Source of the DNA: Spirochaetaceae bacterium
GTDB lineage: Bacteria > Spirochaetota > Spirochaetia > DSM-2461
Assembly (NCBI GenBank): GCA_051531975.1
Contig: JAOPTT010000017.1
Span: 44,597-108,596 of the forward strand
Length of the DNA stretch: 64,000 nucleotides
Direction: 5' to 3'
Positions 59,831 through 64,000 of this stretch are shown here, one piece after another; the first letter of the stretch is position 1; each line of letters begins with the position of its first letter. The notes under the pieces were generated by a model. That model saw only the letters and a list, made by a program, of their open reading frames with translations. It was not told where the DNA came from and ran no database searches. Both the position numbers and the translations under genes were made by a program.

Positions 59831-61267
59831 CTATTTTATTAGTGGTGCCCATGAAGTTTGAGCAGCAGGTGTTTTATCTTTTAAAATAATACGTCTATTT
59901 CGACAACTAATTATTTCTTCTTTATATCTTTTATCATCTATAATGTTAACTTGTTCGTTGGGATCAGATTTTAAATCATATAATTCTTCTGTGATGTTTA
60001 TAAAATCATTAAAATATATAATGTACTTAAAGTTATCAGTTTGGATCATCTCCCATTCGTTATTAAATTCTGTAAAACTAAAATCTCTGATACTTTCTTT
60101 CTGTTCTTTAATTAATGGTAATAATGAGATGCATGGAATTATATTGTTGAATGCTGGCCAATCTTTGCTTAAAGAATGAATAGGATTTAGACCGGCGATA
60201 TCTAATATGGTTGCAGTAAAATCTATTATTTCAATAGGAGAGCTATTAACAATTTTATTTAAATAATCGGGATGTCTAATTGCAGCTGGTACTGTACAGG
60301 ATTGTTTCCATGGAACCATTTTTTCCATTCTTCCATGGTCTCCCAACATATCCCCATGATCCGATGTGAAAAGTATTACAGTATCTTTTAATAAATCTTT
60401 CTTTTCTAAAATGTGGAATATTTTACCAATTTGGTCATCCACCAACTTAACCATGGCTTTTGCAGATCTTCTTTGTTTATACAACTTATCTTTTATATCA
60501 TCAGTAAGAATTTCACCATTATATAGAATAAAATCATCTTTCTCTTCATGTGGAATAAGGTCTAAATACTCTTTAGGTGGATCGTATGGTTTATGTGGGC
60601 TGCAGAATGAGCCATATATAAAAAATGGTCTGCTTTTAGGTGCATGTTGTATTGTTTCAACAATTTTATCCCCTATTATAACATCTACATAATCCTCAGT
60701 TCTAAATGGCCAGTATTCCGGTTCTTTTTTTAAATCTTTAGCATATTTGCTATTTTGTCCTGCGGACTCTACAAAATCTCTATAACTATCTAATTTTCCT
60801 TTTTTATCCAGATAGGCACAATAGTCACAGTAATTTTTAGTTGCTAACTGTTTTCCTGAACTCTCCCATATAACATCGAAACCATAATCTTTAATGTCAT
60901 CTTTTATTGTATTTAGTGGAATACCCTTCCCTCTTTTTGTATTCCAATCCCATGTTTGAAGAAAATGGAATTTCCCAATACCTGCTGTAAAATAACCCTT
61001 CTTCTGTAGAGCTTTCGTATAGGTTGGAATTTGTCTACTTAGATCTCCAGACATGGCAAGGGTTCCAATCTGATGTGGATATCTACCGGAAAGAAGTGCT
61101 GTTCTAGCTGGTGTACAAACCGGGTTTACCGTCTGGCAATTAGTGAATCCAATAGATTCAGCAATTCTATCAATATTTGGAGTTTTAAAATTAGATTTTC
61201 CACTATAACCAACATAATCTAATCTTTGCTGATCTGTCATGATAAAAACTATATTCTTTAATTTCAT
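59831..61267 (-). CDS. Formylglycine-dependent sulfatase
   Basis: MTDQ, PVCTPAR..LLSG, IGKFH, PHKP, TSDHG. Confidence 0.94.
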   Translation of the reverse strand: MKLKNIVFIMTDQQRLDYVGYSGKSNFKTPNIDRIAESIGFTNCQTVNPVCTPARTALLSGRYPHQIGTLAMSGDLSRQIPTYTKALQKKGYFTAGIGKFHFLQTWDWNTKRGKGIPLNTIKDDIKDYGFDVIWESSGKQLATKNYCDYCAYLDKKGKLDSYRDFVESAGQNSKYAKDLKKEPEYWPFRTEDYVDVIIGDKIVETIQHAPKSRPFFIYGSFCSPHKPYDPPKEYLDLIPHEEKDDFILYNGEILTDDIKDKLYKQRRSAKAMVKLVDDQIGKIFHILEKKDLLKDTVILFTSDHGDMLGDHGRMEKMVPWKQSCTVPAAIRHPDYLNKIVNSSPIEIIDFTATILDIAGLNPIHSLSKDWPAFNNIIPCISLLPLIKEQKESIRDFSFTEFNNEWEMIQTDNFKYIIYFNDFINITEELYDLKSDPNEQVNIIDDKRYKEEIISCRNRRIILKDKTPAAQTSWAPLIK

Positions 61268-61274
61268 ATACTAA

Positions 61275-61302
61275 ACAATATCATATTTGAAACTATTGTC
61301 AA
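61275..61302 (-). promoter_or_regulatory. Sigma-70-type promoter of the sulfatase-sulfatase-GH3-IclR operon
   Basis: TTGACA-N16-TATTGT with TGn; the -10 box lies 7 nt before the ATG. Confidence 0.5.
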
Positions 61303-61542
61303 TATTTTACCTGCTTTCATTATAATAATTATATATTTTATAGCTAAGCAACTACTCGGTAATACGTTTTAATGGAATCATAATACGTTTTTTTTATCGT
61401 TAAAATGACTGTTTTTACTTATTTGCCAATAATATAAAATATAATTCATCATTTTAAAACAATATGATAAATAAGTGTTTTATTATGGGATCATATAACA
61501 CATCCAGCAAGACAAGACTATCCGTGAATGATAAGATAACCG

Positions 61543-61923
61543 ATGCCTAAAAGAATTCACAAAGAACTTACTAAAATCAAATACTCAGATGGCGAAACTG
61601 TTGGTCAAAGGATAACTGAAATACGAAAAGTACGAGGTTATACTCAAGTTGAACTTGCAGAAAAAATTGGTATTGCACGTGATTTACTTTCCAGTTACGA
61701 ATTAGGTAGAGTTCGGATTTATGACGAAATGATCTACAGGCTAGCCCTAATTCTTGAAGTATCTACAGACAGACTCCTTGGCTTTGAAAAAAGAGAGGAA
61801 GTTGCAGAAAGTGTCAGTCTCAGATATACCAGAAGAATAAAACAAATAGAAACACTCCCTGAGCATAAGATAAGAATGATATTAAAAATGATAGATGATT
61901 CTATCAAGGCCAACAAAGAATAA
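61543..61923 (+). CDS. XRE-family HTH transcriptional regulator
   Basis: GQRI...RK.RGYTQVELAEKIGI.....S.YE.G, and L.VSTD.LLG. Confidence 0.9.
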   Translation: MPKRIHKELTKIKYSDGETVGQRITEIRKVRGYTQVELAEKIGIARDLLSSYELGRVRIYDEMIYRLALILEVSTDRLLGFEKREEVAESVSLRYTRRIKQIETLPEHKIRMILKMIDDSIKANKE

Positions 61924-62313
61924 GTATCTTCAAACGAATCATAAAGACAACATTTAGAGGTATTTGTAATAATCATACTGGCTTAATAAATTCCTTACAA
62001 AGATTTTTGTTTATCAGATAGCCCACAGCATCAATTAAGGATGCCTCCTACAAATTATTTTCATGAGTATTATCTAAAATATCAATAGAAAGTATATAAA
62101 CCTTTATTATCTTAGATTTGAAATCAAAATACCATCTTTCATATGGATTCAGACTTACTTTACATCTAATTGTTAATAAACCTATTCTAAAGTCTCTTTT
62201 TGGAATACAAACTAATAATAAATTTTATTTCTCTATATATAATTTAAATAACATAATGTAAACAGGGTTGTTTTTTTTACTCTTCTATTTGTAATTAATA
62301 TAATTTTAAGGAT

Positions 62314-62592
62314 TCAATCCTCAACCTCTTTTAGCCGATTATTAAAGCATTTTTTTGCATAAAGGACTTCCTCTGATAATTTTAAATAGGCAACCTTTAA
62401 AGAATTCAGATTCACCTCTGCATTACCTTTTAAGCAAATATCCCTTAATTGGTAAACATTCTTTCCCTCAAAAAACAGTTCACAAATAGTAACTTTTCCT
62501 ATCTGTAATACTTCTATTTTTTCTAGAATACAAGTGTTAATATAATAAAAACAAGCTTCATATATATCACAGGTGGTAATTATATTCTTCAT
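62314..62592 (-). CDS. Small hypothetical protein, phage/mobile-element-like (DUF5659-like by eye)
   Basis: GGAG RBS before ATG 62592; T.DIYEA.FY...F.G...VNL..LK.AY pattern. The family call is tentative. Confidence 0.45.
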   Translation of the reverse strand: MKNIITTCDIYEACFYYINTCILEKIEVLQIGKVTICELFFEGKNVYQLRDICLKGNAEVNLNSLKVAYLKLSEEVLYAKKCFNNRLKEVED

Positions 62593-63323
62593 ATTATCTC
62601 CAATAGTATGAAATCTATTATTTGACAAAAAAATTTAATTAAAATGTCAGAAAAGGTTTATTATTTCTTTTAAAATTTCAGGTATTGTTATTATGGTACA
62701 GTTATCCATTCATAAAAAAATATTTTATGAATCCTTAAATCGTTTGTTTTTTTTAATAATACTTCAGTAAATTATATATTTTACAATACAGATAAAAAGT
62801 TTATTTTTTTATTATGTGTCTATAATACACATTAATCAAGTGTAAAATCCTAATAAAAAACTCAATATTTACCTTTATTATTCTATTTGTCTAATAATCA
62901 TTGATGATTAATACTTCTCATGAAGCTTAGAATGGAAGAATATCCCCTGCGTGAGTAGTTATAGTTTTAAATTTAATGATTAACTTAATCCATTCAGCCA
63001 CTATAACCTATCTTATTGCTCATTCTCAGTCAATTAACCTCAATTAATGTCATTTTTTTAATACAACAACATGAATTACTAAACTGTTCAACAACTTCTA
63101 AATTCAATTTTATATATATATCTTATAATTATTACGCTACCTTTAGAGCCAAAAATCAATCATAACTGAATATATGAATATCTTTCTGGGAATTACGACA
63201 TTTATTTTACTAGGTAATTTTTCAAATATAATAAATATTTGAAATGTATAGAGGATAAAAATAAAAGTGATATTTAAAACAGATTGGACGATTCCTTCTT
63301 TTAGCGAAATCGTTATAAACAAA

Positions 63324-63348
63324 AAAACCAACCCTATAGGTTGGTTTT
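63324..63348. terminator. Perfect inverted repeat, bidirectional rho-independent terminator
   Basis: AAAACCAACC-ctata-GGTTGGTTTT with A/T tails on both sides. Confidence 0.75.
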
Positions 63349-63381
63349 ATATGTGTATTCAATTTCATTTATTACTTTTGA

Positions 63382-63453
63382 GAGACAATTCCTTCTTTTG
63401 TCGGTGGGACGATCCCTCCTTTTGTCGGTGGGACGATCCCTCCTTTTGTCGGA
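63382..63453. repeat. 24-bp tandem repeat x3 (gggacgatccctccttttgtcggt)
   Basis: Units at 63382, 63406 and 63430. A diverged fourth copy with the same 3' flank (aatcgttataaa) lies at 63285-63326. Confidence 0.92.
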
Positions 63454-63457
63454 ATCG

Positions 63458-64000
63458 TTATAAATAAAAAAGTCTAGTTTATTAACCCCAACATCATACT
63501 TTCCGATGAGGAAATGTATAACTATCTAAATGTATTAGTTTAAATATTCGAAGATAACACCTATGGCAACGATGGTGCTGTGTTCGTACTTAGATTAGTT
63601 TGAATTGTTTATATCAGAGTCGAATTATAAAATAAAAAAGTCTAGTTTAATAACCCCAACGCAAAGCAATTTGCCTTGGGCCTACTATCCCACTAACATC
63701 AAACTTCTCGGAGAGAGAATGTTTGACTATCTTAATGCTTAGTTTAAACTTTCGAAGATAACACCTATGCCAACGATGGTGCTGCGTTAGTGCTTAGATG
63801 AATTCAACTTGATTGAATTAGATACGATTATAAAATAAAAAGTCTAGTTTAATAACCCTAACATCAAACTTCTCGGAGAGAGAATGTTTGACTATCTTAA
63901 TGCTTAGTTTAAACTTTCGAAGATAACACATATGGTACCCGATGGTACGGAGTTAGTGCTAGGATGAATTAGAATTGCTAATATCAGAAACGAATTATAA
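63458..64000. repeat. Non-coding tandem array of ~167-bp structured units (at least 3 copies, continues past the window)
   Basis: Units start at ttataa 63458, 63625, 63828 and 63995 (periods 167, 203, 167). Copies 2 and 3 are identical over 72 bp (63693-63764 = 63858-63929). Confidence 0.95.

Follow-up and report, generated by a model that had tools for sequence, protein, structure and literature searches.

The end of this contig raises the question of why a small bulged hairpin recurs there in a tandem array with its pairing intact, and of the kind of molecule in which that pairing would matter. The window, by which we mean the whole analyzed stretch of 64,000 nt, ends where contig C17 of the source genome (G000) ends; the array starts near position 63458 and runs off that end. 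A preliminary description of this DNA placed three hairpins in the array, and they lie where it put them: on the + strand, ATAC-TTTCC-GATGA-GGAAA-T-GTAT occupies 63496-63519, and TCAAAC-TTCTC-GGAGA-GAGAA-T-GTTTGA occupies 63699-63726 and again 63864-63891. Its report of complementary changes on both arms at three stem positions, between copy 1 and copies 2 and 3, is confirmed by direct reading. All three are genuine copies of one small stem-loop that is specific to the genus, and tandem repeats built partly from the end of the 5S gene carry them. As to what keeps them, the reading we favor, at a probability of about one half, is that the hairpin is a structural module of spacer RNA, kept for its folding and for recognition at its bulge, and REP-like in its working.

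Repeat finding resolves three units at spacings of 168 and 202 nt. The first unit, of 168 nt (63472..63639, minus strand, bounded at CTAGAC and by unit alignment), reads in sense order as a T-run, an inverted 5S piece, the hairpin, and GTTGGGG..AAACTAGAC, a copy of the 5S 3' terminus. The second, of 202 nt (63640..63841, minus strand), contains a 36-nt insertion; one 5S piece more is present in it, together with an inserted hairpin (CCCAAGGCAAATTGCTTTGCGTTGGGG). The third (63842..64000, minus strand) is incomplete at the contig end, where the array appears to continue toward an unassembled rRNA operon. The 5S-derived pieces emerge from local alignment to the 5S gene of the congener G021 (same genus, 2 contigs, 96% complete): a direct copy of 5S positions 81-97 (GTTAGTGGGATAGTAGG) at 63681..63697 on the minus strand scores 29 against a null maximum of 22, and an inverted copy of positions 69-87 at 63774..63792 on the + strand (repeat family D1) scores 33 against a null maximum of 22. 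The inverted piece, with equivalents at 63570-63588 and 63940-63958, is 5S-like on the + strand and antisense in the trailer. In nine of ten unit-by-strand alignments the 5S-derived pieces beat every shuffle, the exception being the sense strand of one short G000 unit.

This likeness to 5S consists of 17-19-nt local matches only. The 5S covariance model (RF00001) has no match in window positions 60000-64000 at E values up to 10, and none where the units lie at the G021 loci. Rfam, searched by E-value with 60000-64000 and with seven rRNA-trailer loci, likewise offers no family to which the units or the hairpin would belong; we attribute its weak matches to snoRNA, U6 and microRNA families to chance, including a U6 snRNA match at 60407-60511 (minus strand, 23 bits, E 0.014) that falls inside a sulfatase open reading frame. 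The tRNA scan of the window finds none, and we reject coding as an account of the units, in which the only frames are of 5-10 codons.

In G021 the genomic setting of such arrays can be read directly. This genome has eight 5S genes, one an orphan with its own promoter and seven operon-linked; one to three complete tandem units follow six of the seven on the same strand, and none follow the remaining one. The units measure 187-219 nt (one is truncated, and two arrays carry an additional partial copy) and end in the 5S 3' end plus a T-run, with a one-directional terminator closing the array. Their order in the rRNA sense is T-run, AT-rich spacer, inverted 5S ~69-87, bulged hairpin, direct 5S ~81-97, often an inserted small hairpin, and CTAGAC. 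A trailer position, between 5S gene and operon terminator on the same strand, is therefore a direct observation for these six of seven operon-linked 5S genes, and for the window it is an inferred one. In G000, six arrays lie at contig ends, namely that of the window on C17 and those of C1, C16, C21, C22 and C27, with fragments inside C2; all six break on the rRNA-proximal side, i.e. the side that faces the 5S gene in G021. The G000 assembly is without 23S rRNA, and the only 5S gene present is the orphan. Summed word depth reaches up to 1382 in the array as compared with 35.6 in the unique flank. An intrinsic terminator on the minus strand (63324..63348), an 11-bp stem followed by a T-run, ends the trailer, and it is one of 2 terminator-like sites in the terminator scan, the other being weak, where 0.4 were expected. 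Based on the contig-end position, the side of the breaks, the missing 23S gene, the word depth, the orientation and the minus-strand terminator, we infer that the window array is the 3' trailer of an unassembled rRNA operon lying just beyond the contig end, whose sense is the minus strand.

Two further features of these neighborhoods deserve mention. The orphan 5S gene has its own promoter (TTGACT, 17 nt, TTTAAT) in both species (G000 C22:5737-6260; G021 L027), and next to it in G000 is a different tandem array, of ~95-nt units, and then a terminator. At G021 loci L019 and L026, ~200-700 nt past the rRNA terminator, a C-terminal tyrosine recombinase fragment is followed by toxin-antitoxin genes.

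The opposite strand offers another way to read the array, in which each unit would be an independent small-RNA gene, degenerate and 5S-like, starting at GTCTAG behind TATAAA and directed toward the rRNA operon. The unit does open with a 5S 5'-like GTCTAG that has TATAAA-N7 upstream, it contains the 5S-like CGATGGTGCTGCGTTAGTG in 5S orientation, and the orphan 5S gene provides an example, elsewhere in the genome, of a 5S gene with its own promoter. We nevertheless regard this account as very unlikely. Promoter matches on the + strand are at chance level (9 found, 9.1 expected) with a -35/-10 spacing of only 14-16 nt; the terminator scan finds no terminator on the + strand of the array; the A-run plus TATAAA simply mirrors, on the complementary strand, the T-run found after every true 5S gene; and the 5S covariance model leaves 60000-64000 unmatched at E up to 10. 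The G.U pairs of a neighboring hairpin also favor the minus strand over the + strand. This second conserved hairpin, ACGATTCC-GACAAAAGGA-GGGATCGT (63433..63458, minus strand, with a further copy at 63288-63313), stands directly after the T-run of the last unit. As ACGATTCC-GACAAAAGGA-GGAATCGT it is found at seven loci, after the T-runs of 5S genes, trailer units and terminators, and copies lie on G000 C1, C22 and C27. It has one compensated pair, and its G.U pairs occur only on the 5S-sense strand (four of seven loci, two types), the opposite strand having C.A.

The loop of this second hairpin carries a Shine-Dalgarno-like AAAGGAGG, and in the window the hairpin is extended into three 24-nt tandem repeats (63384..63455, minus strand, repeat family D5, Tandem Repeats Finder score 117) with the Shine-Dalgarno-like sense sequence CCACCGACAAAAGGAGGGATCGTC. 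The repeats at 63384-63455 present a ribosome-binding-site-complementary motif on the + strand and its Shine-Dalgarno-like complement on the rRNA-sense strand. Metatranscriptome contigs from the same sample (12 million letters) have no match on 63000-64000, a result with no bearing on transcription either way.

The bulged hairpin itself is longer on the minus strand than first described, with a stem of 7+5 bp that includes G.U pairs. On the strand with the unpaired A, its layout is 7 bp, the A, 5 bp and a loop of 4-5 nt, for a total of 29-30 nt. In the rRNA sense, copy 1 (63493..63522, minus strand) reads GTTATAC-A-TTTCC-TCATC-GGAAA-GTATGAT and matches the covariance model at C17:108089-108118 with 43.3 bits; copy 2 (63698..63727, minus strand) reads GTCAAAC-A-TTCTC-TCTCC-GAGAA-GTTTGAT and matches with 44.4 bits; copy 3 (63863..63892, minus strand) has the same sequence as copy 2. 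Alignment of 19 distinct versions, drawn from G000 and G021 only and so from two species of one genus, refines the earlier picture. The loop had been taken as fixed at 5 nt, and it has 4 nt in three of the 19. The single bulged T fares better: one unpaired base is present in 19 of 19 versions, a count to be read in light of the fact that the scans that gave most of them required it, but in the rRNA sense of the window units the extrahelical base is an A.

In this alignment, standard pairs fill 96.9% of 225 cells, compared with 82.3% in shuffles, and 0 of 500 shuffles reach the observed value (some solo copies came from scans that required pairing). Seven of the 12 pairs change on both sides, as happens in 2 of 500 shuffles, and they do so in 31 cells, which is matched by 0 of 500. 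When the partner column is slid by 1-3 columns as a control, pairing falls to 36-53%. RNAalifold, run unguided, returns the same 11 bp plus the bulge, and the pair types found at each position imply at least 11 separate pair switches. The seven unpaired cells consist of four at the outermost position and three internal C.A combinations. In G000, all eleven terminal copies embedded in arrays were located through the homology of their units, and if G.U is accepted every one of them is paired at 12 of 12 positions. Taken across copies that are related by duplication within each genome, and across two carrier species only, these data support the proposal that base pairing rather than sequence is what the hairpin copies keep. 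The preliminary description had argued for selection on a folded structure and had pointed to integron attC sites as a precedent; the shuffle counts and RNAalifold bear out the first idea to the extent that pairing and not sequence is kept, and membership among attC sites is not supported, as discussed below.

Nine columns of the alignment are invariant, and they cluster around the bulge; the invariant neighbors of the unpaired base are listed as four pairs (A-U, C-G, the bulge, U-A). In the five G021 copies from 16S-23S spacers, a 1x1 T.T mismatch replaces the unpaired base. That the unpaired base is retained although the stem sequences change is consistent with a folded single strand being what is recognized. 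Among more specific roles, we rejected an intrinsic terminator (GTTAG..., and not a T-run, comes after the hairpin) and CsrA-type GGA loops (GGA occurs in only some loops). Mimicry of loop E to attract 5S-binding proteins was also rejected as an account of the hairpin in general (the two motif strands lie on one strand in a single G021 unit type only, and not in G000).

Matched changes on two arms could also arise with no function at all, if the units were neutral by-products of tandem duplication at a strongly transcribed operon end and the arms were matched by template switching within the palindrome during replication. Template switching has been reported to produce and preserve hairpins whose changes look compensatory, and its copying of one arm from the other in a single step would explain fast compensated change (PMC8794818). 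A neutral origin would also suit stems that are more variable than some flanking blocks, a unit number that ranges from 0 to 3 between operons, and the recurrence of 5S-end duplicates in other genera, which is described below. We consider it unlikely, based largely on the bulge: template switching should erase or mirror an unpaired base, which is instead found in 19 of 19 copies (most scans assumed it) and is surrounded by the nine invariant columns. In addition, both species have the hairpin, although their units have diverged in sequence elsewhere, except in the 5S-derived blocks.

The distribution of the hairpin is narrow. The order to which the source genome belongs is represented by one family of 38 genomes, G000 and G021 included. 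With a sequence pattern, 13 copies are counted in G000 and 14 in G021, next to one chance-like match in G018 and none in the other 35 genomes; the reversed pattern, as a control, has 1 match in all 38. The covariance model has 22 matches in G000 and 21 in G021; seven other genomes have at most one weak match each (E 0.002 or worse), and the remaining 29 have none. No hairpin copies are present in two further genomes of the genus, which are 71-81% complete. When all bacteria outside the genus were scanned with the pattern, 109 stretches were returned, and each of the 80 listed holds one match, in unrelated phyla and at the level of chance. Metagenome scans with hairpin-plus-5S patterns gave 0 matches, and the array is unmatched in plasmid and phage collections. 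The hairpin is restricted to one genus.

Within that genus, all examined copies are non-coding, and most in G021 belong to rRNA operons: 20 of its 21 matches lie inside rRNA transcription units, 14 in 5S trailers, five in 16S-23S spacers and one in a leader, and one match lies elsewhere. The spacer copies, present in five of seven operon spacers, stand directly after a tRNA-like remnant, and of seven rRNA leaders examined one has an intact copy and a second a decayed one. G000 has copies after each of its two tRNA-Asn genes and after the second tRNA-Ser gene. A further six intergenic sites outside the arrays hold copies, three of them as unit fragments on C2 and one in a divergent intergenic region.

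Several of these sites have an architecture of their own. In the G021 16S-23S spacer at L202:400-470, the apparent 3' part of a decayed tRNA (GGTTCGATTCC...) has a hairpin copy immediately after it, the same arrangement as that after the G000 tRNA-Asn genes. On G000 C2, three fragments of trailer units, each a double hairpin plus GTTAGGGATAGCA, lie within 48 kb at 482485, 487717 and 530152, the outer copies inverted. They are part of a defense and mobile-gene island, whose content includes genes for type I restriction-modification, nuclease/helicase genes and two genes of an IS21-like transposase pair. Also on C2, at 161722-161975, five tandem 27-nt hairpin-core modules (GGGACAAACATTTTCTTTTCGAAAAGT) end in one full hairpin, with a bidirectional terminator adjoining.

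This pattern of occurrence brings in the main rival to an RNA module, a DNA-level palindromic repeat of the REP or MITE kind, which would spread or recombine as folded single-stranded DNA or bind a DNA-binding protein, with pairing kept for mobility or binding, and which would simply have built up in the non-coding DNA near stable-RNA genes. Several observations would suit such an element. The hairpin occurs in both orientations relative to transcription; solo copies are found at at least seven non-rRNA loci in G000, as compared with one match outside rRNA operons in G021; presence in leaders and spacers is patchy; a hairpin-like module is nested in the loop of another in a G021 unit at locus L022; and short stacks of core modules occur in tandem, such as the five 27-nt modules at C2:161.7-162.0 kb. 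Exceptions of the G.U/C.A type fall on either strand. In the trailers the rRNA sense is favored by G.U at the outermost position, in 13 of 18 informative rows, and by two G.U pairs further in, but C.A appears on the locally transcribed strand in one trailer copy and in one or two solo copies, so that the internal evidence from the bulged hairpin is mixed, with ~3 cases for the locally transcribed strand and 1-2 against. The unpaired base in the transcript would be A in 5S trailers and U in 16S-23S spacers, the leader and tRNA trailers. Given both orientations and an A or a U at the bulge, a strand-specific RNA-binding protein would not see the same object at every locus, which counts against an RNA module, as do the several G000 copies outside stable-RNA operons.

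The comparison with REP and BIME elements of enterobacteria and pseudomonads is close in form. Those elements are imperfect extragenic palindromes of 20-40 nt, mostly 3' of genes, in either orientation and sometimes in tandem stacks, and a short, repeated, imperfect extragenic palindrome is what the hairpin is (22 matches in G000 and 21 in G021). Both have a conserved stem irregularity, and recognition of REP by its protein is reported to require the conserved bulge (PMC8266576). Roles that have been proposed for REP include mRNA 3'-end protection and termination. The hairpin differs in its low copy number, only ~22 per genome, in its concentration in rRNA and tRNA operon spacers, and in being embedded here in 5S-derived units. 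The transposase associated with REP elements is also missing from both genomes: the RAYT/Y1 transposase family (PF01797), found in 6 of 14 control genomes, has 0 matches in G000 and G021. At the stem base the GTAG/CGTC tag is absent (the flanks read GATA/G..., .../GTTAG or ATT/GACAAAC), and target-site duplications were not seen. With 20 of 21 G021 copies inside rRNA transcription units and no match in plasmid or phage collections, we view a DNA-level repeat as a real but less probable alternative to the spacer-RNA module.

A particular form of DNA-level recognition would make the hairpins miniature attC-like sites for the genome's integron integrase and the units cassettes devoid of ORFs. Integron core sites have the consensus RYYYAAC/GTTRRRY, and attC sites comprise two box pairs (R''/L'' and L'/R') with a variable arm, ~55-140 nt in total. 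An integron integrase is encoded in both genomes (387 and 382 bits against a curated cut-off of 265), and the outer arms of the hairpin, GYYAAAC/GTTTRRY, are one base longer than the core-site consensus. The two kinds of site share a folded single strand that is recognized (presumably so for the hairpin), and a sequence that is free while pairing is kept. Extrahelical bases may be a further likeness; in the hairpin the extrahelical base is single in 19 of 19 distinct copies, on a strand that varies by locus. Other features differ. At 29-30 nt the hairpin is half the length of the shortest known attC sites, and it has one interrupted stem where attC has R and L boxes with a variable arm. It lies neither at cassette boundaries nor near the integrase, which in G000 is encoded at C8:31741-32976 with a cassette array to its right; no hairpin copy is present in or near that array, and the hairpin model has no match on C8. 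The genome's own attC-like sites, found by folding the C8 spacers, are palindromes of ~110 nt (TAACAAA..TTGGAATGG...CCACTCAA..GTTA) with two boxes and a long variable arm, and they are unrelated to the hairpin in sequence and layout. The window array has no ORFs between its sites, and its units are homologous tandem copies that track 5S, not unrelated cassettes. We therefore judge an attC identity to be highly improbable. The region C8:31741-45000 is a chromosomal integron in its own right, in which the integrase faces same-strand cassette-like ORFs that include a toxin-antitoxin pair; a simple search of C8 for attC core sites showed no enrichment.

The preferred reading, in which the hairpin belongs to spacer RNA, invites comparison with known features of rRNA operons. 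Like other rRNA-operon spacer elements, the hairpin is structured and undergoes concerted evolution between the operons of a genome, and its positions, after 5S, between 16S and 23S and in one leader, agree with theirs. In known leader-trailer helices, the paired sequences flank an rRNA on its two sides (PMC11404451); the hairpin, by contrast, is local and sits in tandem units with inverted and direct 5S pieces. Our literature search on 5S-end trailer repeats found no description of such units. They resemble tandem or extra 5S genes in that duplication takes place at the 5S end of the operon, but they keep only 17-19-nt 5S pieces plus the last 6-12 nt, to which the 5S model is blind.

Duplication of this kind is not confined to the genus. 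In five other genomes of the family, the 700 nt that follow every 5S gene were searched for the final 12 nt of 5S. Copies of the 5S end are present at two of three loci in G017, one of four in G002, two of five in G008 and none of three in G016, or 5 of 15 together, where the null expectation is at most 0.055 per locus. In G034 the single match is a true second 5S gene, 487 nt apart, so that this genome has two true 5S genes. The units of the other genera match no Rfam family and, as judged by eye, have a short inverted copy of the 5S end at their start. One could imagine from this a family-wide rRNA-operon trailer RNA, made of inverted and direct copies of the 5S 3' end and freed by the 5S maturation enzymes, that could influence ribosome biogenesis as a decoy or a regulator. 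In such an RNA the bulged hairpin would be a genus-specific protein-binding arm, and the spacers and tRNA trailers into which it has spread would show how far a single structure-specific factor for stable-RNA processing reaches. We offer this as speculation that is quite unlikely to hold.

For the spacer-RNA module itself, we propose the following course of events. The module would be a ~30-nt element in the transcribed spacers of the stable-RNA operons of the genus, located in the window inside tandem units of 165-202 nt. Each unit would have arisen as a duplicate of the 5S 3' end plus the downstream spacer, and copy number would probably change by unequal recombination between 5S-end copies. 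Read-through of the weak T-runs at the 5S ends may carry the units into RNA, up to the terminator at 63348-63324. A need for folding in that trailer RNA would then keep the hairpin, and the unpaired base with its four invariant neighboring pairs (A-U, C-G, the bulge, U-A) may serve as the contact point for a putative protein, probably a processing or 3'-end-protecting factor.

As an instance of covariation within genomes the hairpin is a tidy example from one genus only, with a putative function, and it is likely to be of interest to RNA-processing specialists more than it is surprising. The 5S-end-derived tandem units explain why short-read assemblies break at these rRNA operons, and they illustrate how a highly transcribed operon can duplicate its terminal part again and again. 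If our reading is true, the rRNA and tRNA operon spacers of one genus are marked by a small hairpin whose unpaired base is fixed, and this would be a good starting point for identifying the protein by which stable-RNA precursors are processed or protected in these bacteria.
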